Shown: positions 2,173-48,566 of the stretch, one piece after another
How positions within the stretch are numbered: the stretch's first letter is position 1
Layout: every line of letters starts with the position of its first letter
Origin: Escherichia coli
GTDB lineage: Bacteria > Pseudomonadota > Gammaproteobacteria > Enterobacterales > Enterobacteriaceae
Reading direction: 5' to 3' (one strand)
Length of the DNA stretch: 64,000 nt
NCBI RefSeq assembly: GCF_011045215.1
Contig: NZ_CP049201.1
Made by a program: the position numbers and the translations under genes
The notes under the pieces: generated by a model
Databases searched by the model: none
Told to the model about the DNA's origin: nothing
What the model saw: the letters and a program-made list of their open reading frames with translations, nothing else

Positions 2173-3441
2173 TTATTGATTAAATACGGCGTGTAAGGCA
2201 TCCACACTACGTGCCGCTCGCAGCGTGCGTCCGGGGTTACTCTGGCTTGCCAACAGCGTTTGTACCTTGCTGACAATATGCGCACCAATAGGAATTGCTG
2301 ATGTCGCTGCCGGGGAGGGCGCATTGCAGGTGTGGATCGTGCGCGGGGTGGTGACAAACAGAAAATCGTCAATCAGCTTGCCGTCCGGCGATACCGCCTG
2401 CGCCCGCACACCGGCGGGCCAGGGCTGGAGATCGCTTAACGAAAGCCGGGGACAATACTTTTGCACCAGCCGCAGATAGCCGCTTTTGCACAGCGAGTTT
2501 TTCATCTCGCCCAGTCCTGAGCGTAGATGGTTTTGCAGCACCCGGCGAATCCCCGACGAGCCTAAAATCTCCAGCGTGTCGCTAAATGAGAAGTCGCGCT
2601 TGCGATAGCCTTCGCGTTTGAACGCCAGCACTGCGTTTGGCCCAACGGTGACGCTACCGTCGATCATGCGGGTGAGATGAACGCCCAAAAACGGCATTGC
2701 CGGATCGGGAATGGGGTAAATCAGATGGTTAACAATCTGGTTATGCTCCGGCGCCAGGCGGAAATACTCGCCGCGGAACGGGCAGATAATAAAGCCCGGT
2801 TCGAGGCCGAGCATTTTCACCAGCCGGTCAGCCATCAGCCCGGAACAGCTAATCAGCGTCGATGCTTCATAGTCGCCGCCCTGACGGGTACGTATCACCA
2901 CGCCGCTTTTATGCTCACTAAGGCCGCTGACTTCGGCGTTATAGATAATCTCGCCGCCTCTGGCCTGGAAAATTTTTGCCATCGCCGCCGTTACTTCGCG
3001 GTAGCTGACAATGCCGCTGGACGGCACAAAAATACCGCCAAGCCCGGTGATATTCGGTTCGCGCTCGCGCAGTTCATCGGCGTTTAACCACTCGCGCTCG
3101 ATACCGTTTGCCGCCGTGCGTTCCCACAACGCGCGCATCCGTTCCATTTCGAGTTCAGAGGTGGCGACCAGCATCTTGCCGCAGTTGTCGTAGCGAATGC
3201 CGTTTTGATCGCAAAAGGCTTTGGTGGCGCGGTTTCCCGCCAGGCAAAACTGCGCCTTCAGACTGCCGGGCGTGTAATAAACCCCGGCATGGATCACGCC
3301 GCTGTTGTGGCCCGTCTGGTGACAGGCCGGGCCGGACTCTTTTTCCAGCAACGCAATGCGGGCGTCCGGGTAGACATCAATCAGTTGCATGGCGGTCGAC
3401 ATGCCGATGATGCCGCCGCCAATAATCACAAAATCATACAT
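2173..3441 (-). CDS. lhgO: L-2-hydroxyglutarate oxidase/dehydrogenase LhgO (YgaF)
   Basis: ORF 2173-3507; likely true start at MYDFVIIGGGIIG (FAD-binding GxGxxG) giving ~422 aa; between csiD and gabD. Confidence 0.9.
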   Translation of the reverse strand: MYDFVIIGGGIIGMSTAMQLIDVYPDARIALLEKESGPACHQTGHNSGVIHAGVYYTPGSLKAQFCLAGNRATKAFCDQNGIRYDNCGKMLVATSELEMERMRALWERTAANGIEREWLNADELREREPNITGLGGIFVPSSGIVSYREVTAAMAKIFQARGGEIIYNAEVSGLSEHKSGVVIRTRQGGDYEASTLISCSGLMADRLVKMLGLEPGFIICPFRGEYFRLAPEHNQIVNHLIYPIPDPAMPFLGVHLTRMIDGSVTVGPNAVLAFKREGYRKRDFSFSDTLEILGSSGIRRVLQNHLRSGLGEMKNSLCKSGYLRLVQKYCPRLSLSDLQPWPAGVRAQAVSPDGKLIDDFLFVTTPRTIHTCNAPSPAATSAIPIGAHIVSKVQTLLASQSNPGRTLRAARSVDALHAVFNQ

Positions 3442-4575: not shown

Positions 4576-4775
4576 TTGGTAACATTTAACGTAGGGTATT
4601 AAGGCAAAGTGAGACAGGAAATGAATAACTAAAGCAACAGGTTAGGGGGGGGATTACCATCAGAGAACAGATTATCTGGTCGATAAAAAACGGTAAATGG
4701 CTTCACTGCAAAATGACCGCTAGTAAACTAAATATATTATCTGCCCCGTTTTAGCGGGGCAGATATAACATTAAA

Positions 4776-7028
4776 TTACAAATAGAGATAGTTCAGCGGT
4801 TCTCCTGTTCTCCCTAAAAGAAGAGCGCTACGCCCAGGAATATTGATATTTAGAGTTCCGCCTCTAAGCATAAATGCTTTACCAGGGGGGATACTTTTGC
4901 GTGTATTATTAATAATAATGTTAACGCTATTACTCCCCATGTTTTTATATTTTCCAGGTTGCAATTTGTTAGGCCAGGCACCTTCAACTTCTTCGTTTCC
5001 TTTATTTATTATAACTAGTCCATCATGAGGAGAGTGATTAATGTTCACAGAATCCCCACGACTAAAGGCCAGAACGTTTTTAGTTGCAAATACACCCTCA
5101 AATGCGCTCCATATTCCTGCTTTATCTATATATAATGCGTGGAATTCATTGTAGAGCTGCTGATAGGTAGAGCAACCTTTATTAAGCCACGCCTCACCGC
5201 CGACACGCGTCGACCCATCATAATTTTTAATTTCAGTCGTTGATTTTAATACTTGGCCATCCCAGTAAACTAAAGGCCTGCTGAACGGGAGAGCGGCCAT
5301 ATATGCCATTGCTAATTGTTCATCTTGTTGATGGTTAAATAGAAAATCATTGAAAAGATTGCCATTGTTAGGAAAATCATGGTTAATGTTAATCAATATC
5401 CGTCTTTTTGATGGGATGCTTGAGATTGTGGAACCCGGTTTTGATGCAAGGGTTTGGAGATCGCCACCAAATGAAAAAGCTTTTATCGTCTTCATGAGCA
5501 ATGAAAAATCAATGGCGCTTAAATCATCTCTTTCATAAAGCAGCGATGACATTTGTTCTTCATCCAACTGACAAGTTACCAGATATTCCATGTAATTCAT
5601 GACGGCTTTTTCATGATATTTTGGGTTAAATAAGTTAGTATTGTGTAATCGCTCATTATAATTTTTAAGCGGTGGGGTTATTGATCTTTCTATTTGTTCA
5701 TGTTTTGAGTGTTTTGCTGCATCGTAACGTAAACCTCGTACGCCATATTTTCGCATTTCACGAACGTATTGATTTTGCAGCATAATAACCTGGTCACTTT
5801 TGGGGGTTGTTTTAGGCATTCCATTTAAACGCTTTTCTTTTAATGCATGGAGGTTTTCCCATTCATCCTTAGAAATATTATCTTTACTAGCTTCGAAGTC
5901 TTTTGCAGTGAGATGTATATCTTCTGGATGGATTTGTTTACGTTCTTTTGTTACTGGATCGATAATAAATGGAATCAAAACCTGACCTTGCCAATAGCCA
6001 GGGATACCACCTTCTATATCTTTACTGATCTTCGCTCGTATATCAGCAGAGGGATAATCCAGGTCATTTTTACCACTACCCCCGATTCCCATAAAGTTAA
6101 AAGTATAATCAGGAATGATATCGATACCAAATTTTTTAGCATCTTTAACCAATGCGATAAAATCCTGCAAATCTCCCATTGGATTGTGGATGGTACAAAG
6201 ATCTTCGGGTTGATAAGCGTGAAACCAGTAACCTTTTTCTTCTTCGGGAGTTTCTGGTCCGTCGGCACGGAAAGTTGTCACTGGAGGGATTTGTATATAC
6301 CCATAATGGCAACGTGCAAATTCAGACATATTTTCTCTGATCTGCTGGTAGGTGGCATTAAAAGCATGAAGAATCGCTTCGCCAGGTTTTTTGGGGGTGA
6401 TGATTTCACATTGTGATTTCTGAACAGCAGTAAGAGATTTACGCTCAAGTGTTTGCCGTAGATGTTCTGGATTGATTAGTATTTTAAATGTTTCTTGCTG
6501 TCCGGAAGGTGACGTCACGTTAATATTATATACATCGGCTGCCAGCTCATAGTCAGGAATGTTAATAGCATATGCAACATATTTATCTTTTGGGGAGGGT
6601 TTGTCAGATATAATGTGGGTGAAATGTTCAGCAGGACCATACTGGTGAACCCCCTTATTATATTCTCTTTAATTCATTGTATCTCTTTGATAAATCCATG
6701 TTTTTCCTTCTCCTATCCTGTCTGGCGCTGTAATACTACGCTGTGCAGCTTTATTCAGTTCACGGTAAGTTGTATCTGGAAAAAGGGAAATTTTATAATC
6801 GTTTTTTAACAGATCATTAATGATTTTTTCTGCGTGAAAAGTTGATATAATTTCTCTGTCTTTTAAATCCTGAGGATAAACTCCACAAGCATTAATAATA
6901 TTTGTTACACAGTTTAGATATTCTAATGTATTTAATTTGGAATTTAGATCCCCGTCAGTAATGTTCCATGATAACAATGTGGGGTTGTCGATAGGTAAAT
7001 TTCTTGGTCCTGGTTTTATAGAAAACAT
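4776..7028 (-). pseudogene. ygaQ: ygaQ-like alpha-amylase-family gene split by an in-frame TAA (ORFs 6669-7028 and 4776-6518)
   Basis: The 119-aa and 580-aa ORFs are in the same frame, separated only by TAA at 6669-6671 (minus strand) and 50 sense codons; GLRYDAAKH motif resembles alpha-amylase region II (GFRxDAAKH). Confidence 0.6.
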
Positions 7029-7587
7029 AATAACGTTCCTCTAATGGTAGAGTAATATGATGTATACGTAAACATAAAAATGTTTAATTGTTGTGAAAGT
7101 AATTGCAAACAGATGTCCTATTTTTATCCAATATTTATATGGAAAAGGATAATGCTTAAATCTGTTTTTTTAATTATCGATGTGGTCTGGAGAGGCAACT
7201 GTCAAAAATCGCTCATACGAAACTAATTATTAGCAGAATAAGTTCTATAAAAGAATATATTGCTATATGAAGTTTATTTTTATGGAGTGAAAAGTAACAG
7301 ATATCATAATGATGCGAAAACTCTTCAGTTAATGTAATAAACTTATATTATTAGATACAAAATCATTACAAAGTATCATTGAATCGATGATAACTATAGA
7401 TAGTGTTAATTATTAACATTTGCTTGTTGACTGCGAGTATCGACTTTGCGAATGGAGGCGATGTCGGGTTTTATGTCGCATGTATTGACGCCCCAGGATG
7501 GATGAGAACGCATAAAAATCTGTTATTTACATCATAAGATCATCATGTTTATTGCGTGGTTTATAAGTATTGTTATTGCATACTTAA

Positions 7588-7663
7588 GGCCCTTTAGCTC
7601 AGTGGTTAGAGCAGGCGACTCATAATCGCTTAGTCGCTGGTTCAAGTCCAGCAGGGGCCACCA
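7588..7663 (+). tRNA. ileY: tRNA-Ile (anticodon CAU, lysidine-type; ileY/ileX-like)
   Basis: 76-nt sequence GGCCCTTTAGCTCAGTGGTTAGAGCAGGCGACTCATAATCGC...GGGGCCACCA with CAU in the anticodon loop and encoded CCA end; recognised as the E. coli minor tRNA-Ile. Confidence 0.93.
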
Positions 7664-8414
7664 AATCATCATTCATGTATCAGGAAGAGTTAAGGGTACA
7701 AGGGGTACTCGATGGCGGTCTATATTTCATGACTAACGCCATTTAAAGGAAGAAGTGCGGTGGGTGGTTTCGAATGAGGGCTGGTGTTTTGGTACGTGGC
7801 ACGCCACTGCAATGTATTTATCCATCAGTACTCATTCAAAAGTACCTGGAAAAAATGCCCGCTATGCCAAGCGGGCAAATTGCTTACATGTGGAATTAAG
7901 TAATTAACGATAAAGCCAGAGTATTATCATTTATTATACCCATTCATTTAATCAGGTTAATTACTCAAATCACTGAACTATTCTCTGTTCGCTCACTGAT
8001 GATGAGTGAGTACCACAACCAATGTATGTAGAACAATGCCGTAGAGTAAGGATGAAATGTCTCTGCCACGCCTTAAACATCTACTACTGACCAGAACACC
8101 CGCCGCAGGTAGATGAGTTTTGTGAGCGTTACAGGAGCGTGGCTATGCTCATTAACCAACGCTATTGAGATATAAATTTCTAACACTTGAAAAACGATTT
8201 TCACTAATAAATTATAACGGGTGTTTTTTATCATACAGCGAAATAACTTTTTGTTTATTAAATTTAACATTTTTGTGCTAATTTAATTAAAAAGTCCATG
8301 CGTAGCATGTGAAGCAGTTAATGCCAGCAATTGTCTCAAATGAGCGATTTTTTATAGTGACAAACAATAATAACATTAAAAATAGCCATGTAGACATTAA
8401 CTGAGGAATAGACA

Positions 8415-9764
8415 ATGTTAATTAATAAAAGCAACGGATTTAACGCTAGCGCAGTTTTGGGTAGTGGAAGTTATAATGAAAATAAATCTTCTAAACACAT
8501 GGAGCTACTAGCTCATAGTATTGTAAAATTAATTTGTAAGGAAGCTGCATCAGAGACGTATCGCGGTGCTCTTGAAACTTTACAAAAAATGATGTCTGAA
8601 TGTAAATATAAAGAAGGCAACGCCTTTGTCATTATGGGAGCTGGAGGACAATTAAAACGTATTAAATATGATGTTGATGAAAATAAATTAAAAATATTCA
8701 ACATATACTTTGATAATAATTACGAGGTAGTTACTGATGGTGAGCCTGACGTAGTATTTTTAAGCAAGCAGGAGTGGGAAAATCTTCTCATTAAATTAAA
8801 ACCGGAGATTAAAGAAAATGTGTTTTCTGAAAATAACAAATTATCGAGAGAAAATAATTTTGATCAGTATGTTCAATCCGCTAAAAGAAATGAACAGACC
8901 CTTTTCGATAATATAAGAAAAAGTGATTTTCATGTTGGTTCACTTAAGCCAGGTAGTATGAATAATGTTATTTTAGAAATGCCACCAAATGTCTGTATGG
9001 AATCACGTAATTCATATGAAAACCAAATAGATGAGATTTCATCTTTGTCAGAGTCAAAGGAACACCCCATAGATATTCAAGAAAAAACAGATGCGTTTGT
9101 GAATGAGTTCAGGGGGATATTATTTGATCAAAATGGAAGGTCTTCAGAGTTTCTACTTAATTTTTATGAATGTTGCTATGTGTTTTTACCAAGAGCGCAG
9201 CCTCAGGATAAAATCGAAAGCTATAATTCAGCACTGCAAGCTTTTTCCATCTTTTGTTCATCTACGTTGACACATAATAATATAGGCTTTGATTTCAAAT
9301 TATTTCCAGAAGTCAAGCTGTCTGGAGAACATCTTGAAACGGTATTCAAATACAAAAATGGCGATGATGTCCGGGAGATAGCCAAAATTAACATTACTCT
9401 CCAAAAAGAAGAGGGTGGCTTATATAATCTACGTGGATTGGATTTTAAGGGATGCTTCTTTTCTGGACAGAACTTCAGTAACTATGATATTCAATATGTG
9501 AACTGGGGAACGTCATTGTTTGATGTTGATACTCCGTGTATTTTTAATACGCCTGCTAACCATGAGAGTTATGAAAAATCATTAAAACCTGTAAGCGAAA
9601 ACGGTTTAAATGGAGTCTTATCTGATCGTAATAAAAAAATAAAAATGATCACGGGTGTGGCGCCATTCGATGATATTTTATTTATGGATGATGACTTTGA
9701 TGATAACTCCCCTGAGGATGCTCCCATTGAGAATAGTCCTGTTGTGAATAGTCCCCTTGTATGA
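8415..9764 (+). CDS. Pentapeptide-repeat-containing protein (ypjB/ypjC-region gene; EspX-like effector family possible)
   Basis: 449-aa AT-rich ORF; C-terminal stretch LRGLDFKGCFFSGQNFSNYDIQYVNWGTSLFDVD fits a pentapeptide-repeat pattern; acidic C-terminal tail. Confidence 0.55.
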   Translation: MLINKSNGFNASAVLGSGSYNENKSSKHMELLAHSIVKLICKEAASETYRGALETLQKMMSECKYKEGNAFVIMGAGGQLKRIKYDVDENKLKIFNIYFDNNYEVVTDGEPDVVFLSKQEWENLLIKLKPEIKENVFSENNKLSRENNFDQYVQSAKRNEQTLFDNIRKSDFHVGSLKPGSMNNVILEMPPNVCMESRNSYENQIDEISSLSESKEHPIDIQEKTDAFVNEFRGILFDQNGRSSEFLLNFYECCYVFLPRAQPQDKIESYNSALQAFSIFCSSTLTHNNIGFDFKLFPEVKLSGEHLETVFKYKNGDDVREIAKINITLQKEEGGLYNLRGLDFKGCFFSGQNFSNYDIQYVNWGTSLFDVDTPCIFNTPANHESYEKSLKPVSENGLNGVLSDRNKKIKMITGVAPFDDILFMDDDFDDNSPEDAPIENSPVVNSPLV

Positions 9765-10059
9765 AGTTCTAAAAGTAGTTTTCAATGATAAATAAATGGC
9801 TATTTTTACGAAGAGATAATAACGTAGATTGAAACAATATGTATTATTGATTGAGTAAATGGGATTATTCTTCACACTACATCCATTTTAGTGTCACTAC
9901 CAAAGAAAAAGGGGCTACGTTTTCATGTAACCCCTTGATTTATTTGGTGGGCTAGCAGTGACTGAATTGGTGCTGTAATTGGTTGAAATATTTCATCTAA
10001 TGTCTGGTTCAACTTTCCTTAGCTGCCTGAAAGTTTTTTGATCTTACCCAGCAATAACA

Positions 10060-10390
10060 GCGTTACGGTGCACCACGCCTGACTGAAGAACTGCGTGCTC
10101 AGGGTTACCACTTCAACGTAAAACCGTGGCAGGAGGTCCGGACTGAAAAAACTGCTCAGGACATCATCGGCAGGGAACGCACTGCTAGTCTGTAAACTGA
10201 ACCGACTGGGGCGCAGTATGTGGCATCTTGTCGTGCTGTTGGAGGAGCTGTGCGAACGTGGTATTAACTTTCGTGCTCTGGCCCAATCTATATTTGCCCA
10301 ACAATGGGGGGGCGAATGCTGTAAAAGTAAAACAATCTGCGATCTCAAAGTTATTGTGTGATTTTTATGTGAGCAGAAGATATTCATCAG
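10060..10390 (+). pseudogene. Degenerate serine DNA-invertase fragment (pinH-like) fused to a short unidentified upstream piece
   Basis: Frameshifted translation gives ...[52 protein letters not shown]..., matching the central region of Gin/Pin invertases ([30 protein letters not shown]); lacks the catalytic N-terminus and C-terminal HTH. Confidence 0.45.
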
Positions 10391-10699
10391 AAACGATTAT
10401 GTAAATCATTTTATTTTGCCAACGGCCTCATTGTCGAAAGAAAAGAATACGCCCGTGTTTCCTGAATAGATTGACTTTTTTATCCAACCACACTTCAGCG
10501 CACTGCGTTTAAAAAATGCCTCATTCTTATGCGGAATATCATCATTTCATCATGATGTCTTTGATGAGCGGTGAACACAATACACTTGCGCTGTCTCTTC
10601 AGGATGAATCCCCTGGTCTGGTGCCTGTGGGCTGATGTTGCAGCAAAGCTAAGGTCGCTTAAACGCTACTCAGTATTCACTTTTCAGAGGATGAAATTT

Positions 10700-13600
10700 A
10701 TGAACAGGACCAGTCCCTATTATTTTCGCCGCTCAGTACTTTCCTTATTGATATCTGCCTTAATATATGCCCAGCCTGGAGAGGCTGCTTTCACATCAAT
10801 CGTTACTGGTATCGTAAATGGTGAAACTGTTGATGGTGATCAAATAGTAGATGAACGTGGTACAACTAATGATATTCATATCATTAATCACGGCCGCCAG
10901 ACTGTAATTGGTGGGATGTCTAATGGAAGTATTATTGAAGTTGGTGGACAACAAGATGTAGCAAGCCATAATGATTATCAGGGGCAAGCTAATAATACAA
11001 TCCTTCATGGGGGTGCACAGGTAATTTATAATGGCGGGAATTCTACCGGTACGATAATCGAGAGTGGTCATCAGCAAGTTTATAACGGTGGTACCAGCAA
11101 TGGCACGATAATCGAGAGTGGCAATCAGTACGTTTATAAAGATGGTACCAGCAATGGCACGATAATTAAGAATGGTAATTCAGTCGTCGAAGGAGGGAGG
11201 GCGAACGGGACTGTCATCGATGGTGGTAAACAAACAGTAACAACTCAGGGATATGTTGACGGTACGACGATAAATAAGTCCGGTTATCAGGACATCATGC
11301 AAGGAAGTCAGGCAAAGAATACGACAATAGATGGGGGGCGGCAGTATGTGGACTCGAGTTTTGTAGAAACCACCATCATCAAAAATGGGGGCGATCAAAG
11401 AGCATATAAGAGCCATGCGCTGAACACTACGATAGATGGAGGTCGACAGTATATTGATTCAAGTACTGCACAAATAACCACCATTAAAAATGGAGGAACG
11501 CAACAATTAATTGCCAGCCAGGCTATGATCACCTCGATTGAAGGGGGAATGCAGACGCTGGAAAGTTCGTCAATGGCGTACAATACCACGATCTATTCTG
11601 GCGGGAAGCAAATTGTTGATAACACCAGCACCTCGGATGTTATTGAAGTTTATTCCGGTGGCGTGCTTGATGTTAGTGGTGGTACGGCAACAAATGTTAC
11701 CCAGCACGATGGTGCAATTTTAAAAACAAACACTAACGGTACGACGGTGAGCGGTACGAATAGTGAAGGTGCATTCTCCATCCACAATCACGTGGCAGAC
11801 AATGTGTTGCTGGAAAACGGTGGTCATTTAGACATAAACGCATATGGTTCGGCAAACAAGACGATTATTAAAGATAAAGGAACAATGTCAGTTTTAACCA
11901 ATGCTAAAGCTGATGCGACCCGAATAGATAATGGCGGGGTTATGGATGTTGCCGGAAACGCGACCAATACCATAATTAATGGTGGTACACAGAATATTAA
12001 TAATCATGGTATTGCCACGGGCACTAATATCAACAGTGGAACGCAAAATATCAAGAGCGGCGGGAAAGCTGACACGACAAATATATCCTCCGGGAGCCGG
12101 CAGATTGTTGAGAAAGATGGTACGGCAACTGGCAGCAATATTAGCGCTGGAGGCTCGCTGATTGTCTATACCGGCGGTATTGCACATGGGGTTAACCAGG
12201 AGACGGGCAGTGCTTTAGTTGCCAACACGGGTGCAGGGACTGATATCGAAGGATACAACAAGCTCTCTCACTTCACTATTACCGGAGGGGAGGCTAATTA
12301 TGTTGTGCTGGAAAATACCGGCGAACTGACGGTAGTGGCTAAAACCTCGGCGAAAAATACTACCATTGATGCTGGCGGTAAGCTGATTGTCCAGAAGGAG
12401 GCTAAAACAGATAGCACCAGACTTAATAATGGCGGCGTTCTGGAGGTTCAGGACGGTGGTGAGGCTAAGCATGTTGAGCAACAATCCGGCGGCGCATTAA
12501 TTGCTTCCACGACCTCCGGAACACTTATCGAAGGAACCAACAGTTATGGTGATGCTTTCTACATCAGGAATTCAGAAGCTAAAAATGTAGTGCTGGAAAA
12601 CGCTGGCTCATTAACCGTCGTCACTGGTTCCCGGGCAGTTGACACGATTATTAATGCCAACGGCAAAATGGATGTTTATGGAAAAGATGTTGGCACTGTA
12701 CTCAATAGTGCTGGCACCCAAACAATATATGCCAGTGCCACTTCTGATAAAGCAAATATCAAAGGTGGCAAGCAAACGGTATATGGTTTAGCCACTGAAG
12801 CAAATATCGAAAGTGGTGAACAAATTGTTGATGGTGGGTCAACAGAGAAAACACACATCAATGGTGGCACGCAAACCGTTCAGAATTATGGTAAGGCAAT
12901 CAATACCGATATCGTCTCTGGCCTACAACAAATTATGGCAAACGGGACAGCGGAAGGTTCCATTATTAATGGGGGTTCACAGGTAGTTAATGAGGGCGGT
13001 CTGGCTGAAAACTCGGTGCTTAATGACGGCGGCACACTCGATGTGCGGGAGAAAGGCAGCGCAACGGGGATACAGCAGAGTAGCCAGGGCGCTTTGGTTG
13101 CAACCACCAGGGCGACGCGGGTCACAGGAACACGCGCGGATGGCGTCGCGTTCAGCATCGAGCAGGGTGCGGCGAACAATATCCTGCTGGCAAATGGCTG
13201 CGTGTTAACCGTGGAGTCAGACACCACTTCCGCCAAAACACAGGTCAATACGGGCGGGCAGGAGATCGTCAAAACAAAAGCCACTGCGACAGGCACGACG
13301 CTCACCGGCGGCGAACAAATCGTCGAGGGTGTGGCGAATGAGACAACGATTAACGACGGTGGAATACAAACAGTTTCGGCTAACGGAGAGGCAATAAAAA
13401 CAACGATCAATGAAGGCGGTACGCTGACAGTTAACGATAATGGCAAAGCAACAGATATCGTCCAGAACAGCGGTGCCGCTCTCCAGACGAGCACGGCTAA
13501 CGGTATTGAAATCAGCGGTACTCACCAGTACGGCACTTTTTCCATTTCCGGCAATTTAGCGACCAATGCGTTGCTGGAAAATGGCGGTAATTTATTGGTA

Positions 13601-15433
13601 TTAGCAGGCACCGAAGCTCGCGACTCCACGGTTGGCAAGGGTGGTGCAATGCAAAACCTGGGTCAGGACTCCGCCACAAAGGTTAACTCTGGCGGGCAAT
13701 ATACCCTTGGGCGGTCAAAAGATGAGTTTCAGCCTCTGGCCCGGGCAGAAGATCTCCAGGTCGCTGGCGGGACGGCAATCGTCTACGCAGGTACGCTGGC
13801 GGATGCATCGGTCAGTGGCGCGACAGGAAGCCTGTCGTTAATGACGCCACGGGATAATGTTACGCCAGTTAAACTCGAAGGGGCGGTCCGGATTACCGAT
13901 AGCGCGACATTAACTCTGGGAAATGGCGTCGATACAACGCTTGCCGACCTGACGGCTGCCAGCCGGGGCAGTGTCTGGCTTAACAGCAATAATTCCTGTG
14001 CAGGTACCAGCAACTGCGAATATAGAGTAAACAGTTTGCTACTCAACGACGGTGATGTTTATTTATCAGCACAAACAGCAGCGCCTGCCACAACTAACGG
14101 TATCTACAATACGCTGACAACCAATGAACTTTCCGGTAGCGGTAATTTCTACCTGCATACCAACGTTGCAGGCTCCCGGGGCGATCAACTGGTCGTCAAC
14201 AACAACGCCACTGGTAATTTTAAAATCTTTGTTCAGGATACCGGCGTCAGCCCACAGTCTGACGATGCGATGACGCTGGTGAAAACAGGGGGAGGGGATG
14301 CTTCGTTTACGCTGGGCAATACCGGCGGTTTCGTTGATCTTGGGACCTATGAGTATGTCCTGAAAAGTGACGGCAACAGCAACTGGAACCTGACCAATGA
14401 TGTCAAACCCAACCCGGATCCCAACCCAAATCCGAAGCCAGATCCAAAACCAGACCCAAAACCGGATCCGAAACCAGACCCGACTCCCGATCCAACGCCG
14501 ACACCCGTTCCGGAGAAACGCATCACGCCTTCTACGGCAGCCGTACTCAATATGGCTGCAACATTACCGTTGGTATTTGATGCTGAGCTAAACAGTATTC
14601 GCGAGCGGTTGAACATAATGAAAGCGAGTCCACACAACAATAATGTCTGGGGGGCGACGTATAACACCCGTAATAATGTCACCACCGATGCGGGTGCCGG
14701 GTTTGAGCAGACGCTGACCGGAATGACAGTGGGGATCGACAGCCGTAATGATATTCCTGAAGGAATTGCCACGCTGGGCGCTTTTATGGGTTATTCCCAT
14801 TCACATATCGGTTTTGATCGCGGAGGACATGGCAGTGTGGGCAGTTATTCTCTGGGCGGCTATGCCAGTTGGGAACATGAAAGTGGTTTCTATCTGGACG
14901 GTGTCGTGAAGCTGAACCGTTTTGAAAGTAACGTAGCCGGTAAAATGAGCAGCGGTGGAGCCGCCAATGGCAGTTACCACAGCAACGGGCTGGGCGGTCA
15001 CATTGAAACCGGGATGCGATTTACCGATGGTAACTGGAACCTGACGCCGTATGCATCGTTAACGGGGTTCACCGCTGATAACCCCGAATATCATTTATCC
15101 AATGGCATGAAATCGAAATCAGTCGATACCCGCAGTATATATCGTGAACTGGGGGCAACGCTGAGTTACAACATGCGTCTGGGGAACGGTATGGAAGTTG
15201 AGCCGTGGCTGAAGGCGGCTGTGCGCAAAGAATTTGTCGATGATAACCGGGTGAAGGTGAATAATGACGGTAATTTCGTCAATGATTTGTCGGGCAGACG
15301 TGGAATATACCAGGCAGGTATTAAAGCCTCATTCAGCAGTACGTTAAGCGGGCATCTCGGGGTGGGGTATAGCAACGGTGCCGGTGTGGAATCCCCGTGG
15401 AACGCGGTGGCTGGTGTGAACTGGTCGTTCTGA
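10700..15433 (+). CDS. ypjA: AIDA-I-type adhesin-like autotransporter (ypjA-like)
   Basis: ORF 10571-15433; probable start ATG 10700 (MNRTSPYYFRRSVLSLLISALIYAQPGEA signal peptide); passenger built of ~19-aa imperfect repeats (NGTIIESG.QQVYNGG...), PNPDPNPNPKPDPKPDP linker, C-terminal beta-barrel ending ...AGVNWSF. Confidence 0.85.
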   Translation: MNRTSPYYFRRSVLSLLISALIYAQPGEAAFTSIVTGIVNGETVDGDQIVDERGTTNDIHIINHGRQTVIGGMSNGSIIEVGGQQDVASHNDYQGQANNTILHGGAQVIYNGGNSTGTIIESGHQQVYNGGTSNGTIIESGNQYVYKDGTSNGTIIKNGNSVVEGGRANGTVIDGGKQTVTTQGYVDGTTINKSGYQDIMQGSQAKNTTIDGGRQYVDSSFVETTIIKNGGDQRAYKSHALNTTIDGGRQYIDSSTAQITTIKNGGTQQLIASQAMITSIEGGMQTLESSSMAYNTTIYSGGKQIVDNTSTSDVIEVYSGGVLDVSGGTATNVTQHDGAILKTNTNGTTVSGTNSEGAFSIHNHVADNVLLENGGHLDINAYGSANKTIIKDKGTMSVLTNAKADATRIDNGGVMDVAGNATNTIINGGTQNINNHGIATGTNINSGTQNIKSGGKADTTNISSGSRQIVEKDGTATGSNISAGGSLIVYTGGIAHGVNQETGSALVANTGAGTDIEGYNKLSHFTITGGEANYVVLENTGELTVVAKTSAKNTTIDAGGKLIVQKEAKTDSTRLNNGGVLEVQDGGEAKHVEQQSGGALIASTTSGTLIEGTNSYGDAFYIRNSEAKNVVLENAGSLTVVTGSRAVDTIINANGKMDVYGKDVGTVLNSAGTQTIYASATSDKANIKGGKQTVYGLATEANIESGEQIVDGGSTEKTHINGGTQTVQNYGKAINTDIVSGLQQIMANGTAEGSIINGGSQVVNEGGLAENSVLNDGGTLDVREKGSATGIQQSSQGALVATTRATRVTGTRADGVAFSIEQGAANNILLANGCVLTVESDTTSAKTQVNTGGQEIVKTKATATGTTLTGGEQIVEGVANETTINDGGIQTVSANGEAIKTTINEGGTLTVNDNGKATDIVQNSGAALQTSTANGIEISGTHQYGTFSISGNLATNALLENGGNLLVLAGTEARDSTVGKGGAMQNLGQDSATKVNSGGQYTLGRSKDEFQPLARAEDLQVAGGTAIVYAGTLADASVSGATGSLSLMTPRDNVTPVKLEGAVRITDSATLTLGNGVDTTLADLTAASRGSVWLNSNNSCAGTSNCEYRVNSLLLNDGDVYLSAQTAAPATTNGIYNTLTTNELSGSGNFYLHTNVAGSRGDQLVVNNNATGNFKIFVQDTGVSPQSDDAMTLVKTGGGDASFTLGNTGGFVDLGTYEYVLKSDGNSNWNLTNDVKPNPDPNPNPKPDPKPDPKPDPKPDPTPDPTPTPVPEKRITPSTAAVLNMAATLPLVFDAELNSIRERLNIMKASPHNNNVWGATYNTRNNVTTDAGAGFEQTLTGMTVGIDSRNDIPEGIATLGAFMGYSHSHIGFDRGGHGSVGSYSLGGYASWEHESGFYLDGVVKLNRFESNVAGKMSSGGAANGSYHSNGLGGHIETGMRFTDGNWNLTPYASLTGFTADNPEYHLSNGMKSKSVDTRSIYRELGATLSYNMRLGNGMEVEPWLKAAVRKEFVDDNRVKVNNDGNFVNDLSGRRGIYQAGIKASFSSTLSGHLGVGYSNGAGVESPWNAVAGVNWSF

Positions 15434-15443
15434 CCATCAACGA

Positions 15444-48203: not shown

Positions 48204-48566
48204 TGGTGGAGCTGGCGGGAGTTGAACCCGCGTCCGAAATTCCTACATCCTCGGTACTACATGCTTAGTCAGTCTTTACATTCGCTTGCCAGCTGCGGAC
48301 GGACACGCCACTAACAAACTAGCCTGATTAAGTTTTAACGCTTCAACCCCAGGCAGGGCTTCCACGCGATCTCTTTTGGGTTTGACCTCTCTTGATCCCC
48401 GTCCTAAGAGCGGAGGCTAGGGAGAGAGGGCTCTAAGCAGGTTATTAAGCTGCTAAAGCGTAGTTTTCGTCGTTTGCGACTATTTTTTGCGGCTTTTTAC
48501 GAGGCCAACCGCCCCTCGGCATGCACCTTGGGTTTCGCAAATCCCGTCGAATCCAGAATCAGCCCC
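48204..48566 (-). ncRNA. ssrA: tmRNA (SsrA)
   Basis: Reverse complement reads GGGGCTGATTCTGGATTCGACGGGATTTGCGAAACCCAAGGTGCATGCCGAGGGGCGGTTGGCCTCGTAAAAAGCCGCAAAAAATAGTCGCAAACGACGAAAACTACGCTTTAGCAGCTTAA...GCTCCACCA, i.e. E. coli tmRNA including the ANDENYALAA tag-encoding segment; 363 nt. Confidence 0.97.

Follow-up and report, generated by a model that had tools for sequence, protein, structure and literature searches.

An apparent mosaic relic of IS3 and a Pin-type serine DNA invertase upstream of ypjA in Escherichia coli

IS3 belongs to the IS3 group of the IS3 family, and its orfA and orfB reading frames are joined by a programmed -1 frameshift. Elements of this type are bounded by terminal inverted repeats of the form 5'-TG...CA-3' and flanked by a 3-bp target-site duplication. 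In the systems governed by serine DNA invertases, inverted 26-bp crossover sites (hix, gix or pix) bound an invertible segment. A degraded gene of the latter kind, pinH, has long been annotated as a pseudogene in E. coli K-12 (b2648, NC_000913.3). The same chromosome carries psaA, a 14-bp copy of the ssrA 3' end (reverse complement TGGTGGGCTGGCGG) that lies at the edge of the annotated CP4-57 element and is read as its attR.

We analysed a stretch of E. coli chromosome of 64,000 nucleotides, referred to here as the window, whose plus strand corresponds to the minus strand of K-12 (NC_000913.3) and in which ileY, ypjCB, pinH and ypjA follow one another in this order. Sequence comparison indicates, with little room for doubt, that the segment upstream of ypjA is an inert mosaic relic, in which nucleotides 1-18 and 544-618 of one IS3 copy are fused head-to-tail to codons 44-101 of an invertase gene and then to the 5' region of ypjA. 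K-12 pinH lies at this same locus. The features of the region are as follows.

9909-9936, minus strand: terminator-like hairpin with a T-tail (terminator scan; 91-95% identity to DNA flanking the 3' end of ssrA in strains E371 and H2)
9944-9958, minus strand: degenerate copy of the ssrA 3' end, TTGGTGGGCTAGCAG (likeness to K-12 psaA)
9959-10020, plus strand: homologous to the outermost ~62 bp at the distal end of K-12 CP4-57 (blastn)
10039-10056, plus strand: IS3 left inverted repeat, nt 1-18, TGATCTTACCCAGCAATA (18/18 identical from IS3 nt 1)
10057-10130, plus strand: internal IS3 fragment, nt 544-618, orfB/InsF codons 62-86 (blastn, BLASTP, Pfam HTH_21)
10131-10139, plus strand: IS3/invertase junction, with 3-9 bases, AGGAGGTCC, assignable to neither parent (homology limits of both parents)
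10140-10309, plus strand: fragment of a Pin/Gin/Cin-type serine DNA invertase, nt 130-303, codons 44-101 (blastn, BLASTP, Pfam)
10315-10670, plus strand: ypjA 5' module, not recombinase-derived (318/356 identities, 89%, E 7e-136, to the ymgJ region of strain NT1W25)

The DNA to the left of the relic carries apparent traces of an ssrA-associated element, the true tmRNA gene ssrA itself lying at 48204-48566 on the minus strand. Positions 9883-9950, which include the hairpin, resemble the DNA found just 3' of ssrA in strains that harbor a P2-like prophage there. We initially read this stretch as native ssrA flank, a reading weakened by its position in E371 and H2, where it sits between the P2-like prophage and ssrA and may thus have been supplied by the phage. 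Immediately beyond it, positions 9944-10020 align with K-12 psaA and the adjoining interior of CP4-57 (56/77 identities, 73%, E 2e-8). This stretch resembles the CP4-57 attR in having a degenerate ssrA core followed by ~62 bp of a CP4-57-like end and preceded by an ssrA-type terminator, but the att-type relic is degenerate and lies on the opposite side of ypjA. It would constitute a second, older att-type relic (9883-10020), on the far side of ypjA from psaA. From position 9958 as far as the core-like site that comes next after ypjA, there is neither a cognate integrase nor any other remaining gene of the element. The core region (9941-9975) differs strongly, by 38%, in the divergent allele of strain FDAARGOS_1288 considered below.

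The IS3 sequence begins further right, at 10039. When compared with a full 1258-bp copy from a BL21 derivative, which served as the IS3 reference throughout, positions 10039-10056 are identical to nt 1-18 of the element (E 9e-5, or E 0.005 against the whole window), whereas only 11 of the 18 bases agree with the internal nt 526-543, so that this piece is far better explained as the terminal repeat. Since position 10039 coincides with the terminal TG of the left repeat, the boundary 10038|10039 marks a true site of IS3 insertion. This 18-bp repeat falls outside the range of the first-pass annotation, which does not mention it. The repeat is joined directly to IS3 nt 544 at 10056|10057, with nt 19-543 (~525 bp) missing and a microhomology of just 1-2 bases at the deletion joint. 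The second piece is equally recognizable: blastn aligned window positions 10044-10130 with IS3 nt 531-618 at 78/88 identities (89%, E 4e-28), an IS3 variant carried on an EIEC pINV plasmid is closer still to the internal piece (92%), and a 151-bp query spanning the IS3 stretch returned ~89% matches in genes labelled 'IS3-like element IS3 family transposase' from thousands of E. coli records.

The encoded peptide tells the same story. Frame +2 contains a 22-residue stretch including the motif YGAPRL, of which 20 residues, at 10064-10123, had been singled out by the first-pass annotation as impossible to place in the neighboring invertase; an IS3-family OrfB origin had been considered there and left unconfirmed. 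In BLASTP, 20 of the 22 residues are identical to residues 62-83 of IS3 OrfB (E 2e-12), which settles the assignment in favor of that origin (orfB codons 62-86). Pfam places the piece in HTH_21, the N-terminal domain of IS3-family OrfB proteins, with an E value of 7e-5 and a score of 23.4 bits that, owing to the shortness of the fragment, stays under the gathering score (28.1). Compared with IS3, one base is missing from the run of A residues at 10120-10123. In summary of its affinities, the relic shares its first 18 bases with the IS3 of E. coli exactly and 74 more at 89% identity (92% for the pINV variant), but it retains only 92 of the 1258 bp of the intact element and cannot transpose: the right end of the copy and the flank beyond it have been deleted, orfA, the frameshift site and the DDE (rve) domain all fell within the deleted parts, and orfB codons 62-86, in the HTH_21 region, are all that is left of the coding sequence. 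The left repeat, complete with its terminal TG, is still present, and no further IS3 sequence, including the right inverted repeat, occurs elsewhere in the 64-kb window. As judged from its sequence, this is a remnant and not a member element.

IS3 homology stops at 10130, and that of the invertase starts at 10134 when phage invertases are used for comparison or at 10140 with a prophage invertase. The invertase-coding segment (51 residues) is read in another frame than the IS3 peptide and matches the Pfam Resolvase family (PF00239; E 8.3e-10, profile positions 48-103 of 145). The closest intact relative that we found is a 185-residue recombinase encoded beside an invertible-type tail-fibre module in a prophage at dusA, to which the segment is 67% identical over 57 amino acids (BLASTP, E 3e-24) and 87% identical in DNA (117/134, blastn, E 9e-45). 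The invertases of Mu-like (vB_EcoM) and P2-like phages follow at 77-84% DNA identity, from window position 10134. Local alignment carries the homology through a 4-bp deletion near 10283 to CAATGGGG, ending at 10309 (invertase nt 303, codon 101). The fragment thus resembles the Pin/Gin/Cin/Hin invertases of Mu-like phages, P2-like phages and prophage e14, with 67% protein identity over codons 44-94. Unlike them, it lacks both ends of the protein. The alignment to the intact invertase begins at residue 38-44, leaving out codons 1-43 with the region of the Ser10 nucleophile, and it stops at codon ~101 of 185, so that codons 102-185, with the remainder of the catalytic domain and the C-terminal HTH, are missing.

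A pinH-like invertase segment had already been recognized in the first-pass annotation, and it is indeed the pseudogene of existing records. K-12 pinH maps to window positions 10123-10362 with ~2 mismatches in 240 bases, and a PGAP pseudogene ('recombinase family protein', both termini missing) maps to 10125-10292. Both annotations describe the invertase part only, the IS3 scraps at 10039-10130 being unannotated in the records examined, and the K-12 feature, unlike the invertase scrap itself, runs ~50 bp into the DNA upstream of ypjA. A search of the literature for pinH yielded a single match, to a different, full-length PinH of the O157 prophage CP-933H. In the O157:H7 strain Z1825, the match to the invertase scrap goes no further than ~10285, where an autotransporter beta-barrel gene adjoins it, which suggests a lineage-specific deletion from the relic into ypjA.

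To the right of the invertase fragment lies a module of a different kind. Positions 10315-10670 are paralogous to the DNA that precedes the degraded autotransporter ycgHI beside minE, a region that includes ymgJ and a second small ORF. The paralogy starts 5 bp past the end of the invertase scrap, which defines a fourth recombination joint at ~10310-10314 in addition to those at 10038|10039, 10056|10057 and ~10131-10139. Past recombination at this site, as the first-pass annotation had proposed, is borne out by this IS3/invertase/ypjA-module chimera with its four junctions. The range it had assigned to recombinase debris, 10060-10390, holds for the core and fails at both ends: IS3 DNA starts at 10039, recombinase DNA ends at ~10309, and the last ~75 bp (10315-10390) match the ymgJ-type module and are not recombinase debris. 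Within the module, a 39-codon ORF (10516-10635) is found in both paralogous copies with few changes, and the ymgJ-like ORF, which starts with GTG at ~10372, is truncated by a stop after 11 codons.

We infer that the element which received IS3 was an older, CP4-57-like one integrated at ssrA, and that the insertion fell ~95 bp inside its distal end. The history would begin with transposition of IS3 into this distal segment, followed by at least three illegitimate deletions in an order that is not recoverable: one of ~525 bp inside IS3, one from IS3 nt 619 to codon ~43 of the invertase gene, and one from invertase codon ~101 to the module upstream of ypjA. Together these would have cut out the remaining IS3 sequence, the greater part of the invertase gene and anything that lay between them, leaving a relic that encodes neither transposase nor invertase and would now be decaying neutrally. 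Insertion of IS3 into the invertase gene itself is unsupported, there being no invertase N-terminal sequence to the left of the IS3 left repeat.

The mosaic is common in the species. With a 901-bp query around the relic, over 3000 complete E. coli genomes matched at >80% coverage, the top match being 100% identical, and the left flank, the IS3 piece and the invertase piece occur together in ~3000-3050 of 5426 complete genomes. The matching genomes are annotated in the order glaH, an amylase-like gene (ygaQ), tRNA-Ile (ileY), ypjCB, the 'recombinase family protein' pseudogene, the 39-codon ORF and ypjA. Outside E. coli, a search for the exact junction pattern in 100,044 species-representative genomes, which would miss diverged copies, gave one match, a 2.8-kb contig (DEQI01000374.1) binned as 'Planococcaceae bacterium UBA3370'. 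This contig is 95% identical to window positions 7618-10417 and is almost certainly E. coli contamination of the metagenome-assembled bin.

All four junctions and both small deletions of the window recur in K-12 and in the divergent FDAARGOS_1288 allele. Divergence between the window and FDAARGOS_1288 is distributed unevenly over the segments:

9976-10038, spacer: 1.6%
10057-10130, internal IS3 piece: 4.1%
10131-10309, invertase scrap: 11.7%
ypjA upstream DNA: 4.5%

For the excess in the invertase scrap, gene conversion with resident pin genes and patchy recombination are both possibilities. At the invertase sites that differ between the two alleles, each allele equals the intact gene about equally often, and the pattern fits independent neutral decay from one chimeric ancestor. 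That the junctions are intact in alleles differing by 4-12% may be owed to linkage with ypjA and not to age alone. A minus-strand ORF of 122 amino acids in the window is not conserved, the annotation of FDAARGOS_1288 having a minus-strand ORF of only 53 amino acids.

No intermediate with an intact IS3 or an intact invertase at the site was found with a query composed of the left flank, the left inverted repeat and IS3 nt 19-155. Five matches at full coverage were considered as intermediates and rejected, all being two-piece joins, and partial matches at a CRISPR locus were set aside as chance similarity to the flank. Each of the five genomes concerned has a fresh, complete copy of IS3, oriented like the relic and within 35-500 bp of it. 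In strain 20220828076, the one of the five that was examined, the fresh copy lies inside the IS3 scrap (at ~2655, corresponding to window ~10073), the DNA beyond it is rearranged and ypjA has been lost.

No function is indicated for the relic by its sequence: no catalytic residues are left from either the IS3 transposase or the invertase, and the relic has no match among Rfam families. A role as the source of an antisense transcript was weighed, in which an RNA initiated at minus-strand promoter-like sites (10437-10377) and ended at the displaced ssrA-type terminator at 9936-9909 would damp IS3 orfB or Pin-family mRNAs or affect ypjA. Two such sites do face the relic, a good terminator hairpin lies ~470 bp downstream on the same strand, and the relic is widespread. 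Promoter-like sites are, however, not above chance (two found against 2.8 expected), only 74 nt, at 89%, are complementary to IS3, the change between alleles looks neutral and Rfam gives no support, all of which make co-option very unlikely. Its more specific form, a minus-strand RNA from ~10400 to 9905 that would serve as an antisense decoy lowering the IS3 transposase and prophage Pin-type invertases, or would set a silent state of ypjA, strikes us as extremely improbable; if true, it would explain why over half of E. coli genomes retain the mosaic with its junctions unaltered.

Phase variation is frequent among surface adhesins, and the invertase fragment precedes ypjA and points the same way as that gene, just as hin does with fljB. 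The fragment might accordingly be seen as the remnant of a Hin-like invertible promoter switch under which expression of the adhesin gene ypjA was formerly phase-variable. We give this hardly any credence. Unlike the Pin/Gin/Cin/Hin systems, the relic has no crossover sites or invertible segment: with two mismatches allowed to the AAACCNNGGTTT core, the hix/gix-type site has one match in the window, at 53 kb, against 4.2 expected, and none near the locus. The closest intact relatives are, moreover, the tail-fibre invertases of Mu-like and P2-like phages, and the paralogous ymgJ/ycgHI module has no invertase, its homology starting exactly where the invertase scrap ends. Finally, that the whole of 10060-10390 is one contiguous, frameshifted invertase pseudogene with the YGAPRL peptide as a diverged part of it, as the PGAP and K-12 labels (recombinase or pinH pseudogene, with no IS mentioned) might imply, is next to inconceivable, given that the peptide and the DNA encoding it match IS3 orfB (E 2e-12 and E 4e-28) and nothing in the invertase, whose homology begins only at 10134-10140, and that an exact IS3 terminal repeat lies directly upstream. 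The outcome that would have refuted the first-pass annotation, a lone continuous invertase pseudogene free of transposase sequence, is thus not what the DNA shows.

The preferred reading of an inert IS3/invertase mosaic adds annotation details to a locus whose invertase part was already known, namely an unannotated 92-bp, two-piece IS3 remnant with an exact left end directly upstream of pinH. The IS3 pieces are ordinary IS debris, and the relic matters very little in itself. Phylogenetic work on the ypjA locus could use it as a marker, and it is a small marker of the layered integration hotspot between glaH and ssrA, where successive ssrA elements would have been followed by the IS3 hit and then by deletions.

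Several observations concern the wider setting. The tRNA gene at 7588-7663 is called tRNA-Met (anticodon CAT) by ARAGORN and tRNA-Ile (ileY, CAU) in RefSeq, which is the usual ambiguity of the lysidine-modified tRNA-Ile2. YpjCB was considered as P2-phage cargo, and tblastn against 50,697 phage records returned no match. Between ypjA and ssrA lies an island of ~33 kb (15443-48203), whose content, by comparison with strain 19AR1724, includes SIR2, three ankyrin-repeat genes, a relaxase, a type I restriction-modification system, two ParB genes, a large serine recombinase and an integrase adjoining ssrA. Strain 19AR1724 has the island and is missing window positions 4638-15442, that is, the amylase-like gene, ileY, ypjCB, the relic and ypjA. 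In NZ_AP042570.1, the strain that best matches the relic region, the integrase of a Stx2g-converting lambdoid prophage directly adjoins ypjA; set against the SIR2/type I restriction-modification island of the window, this prophage shows that the position beside ypjA hosts different integrated elements depending on the strain.
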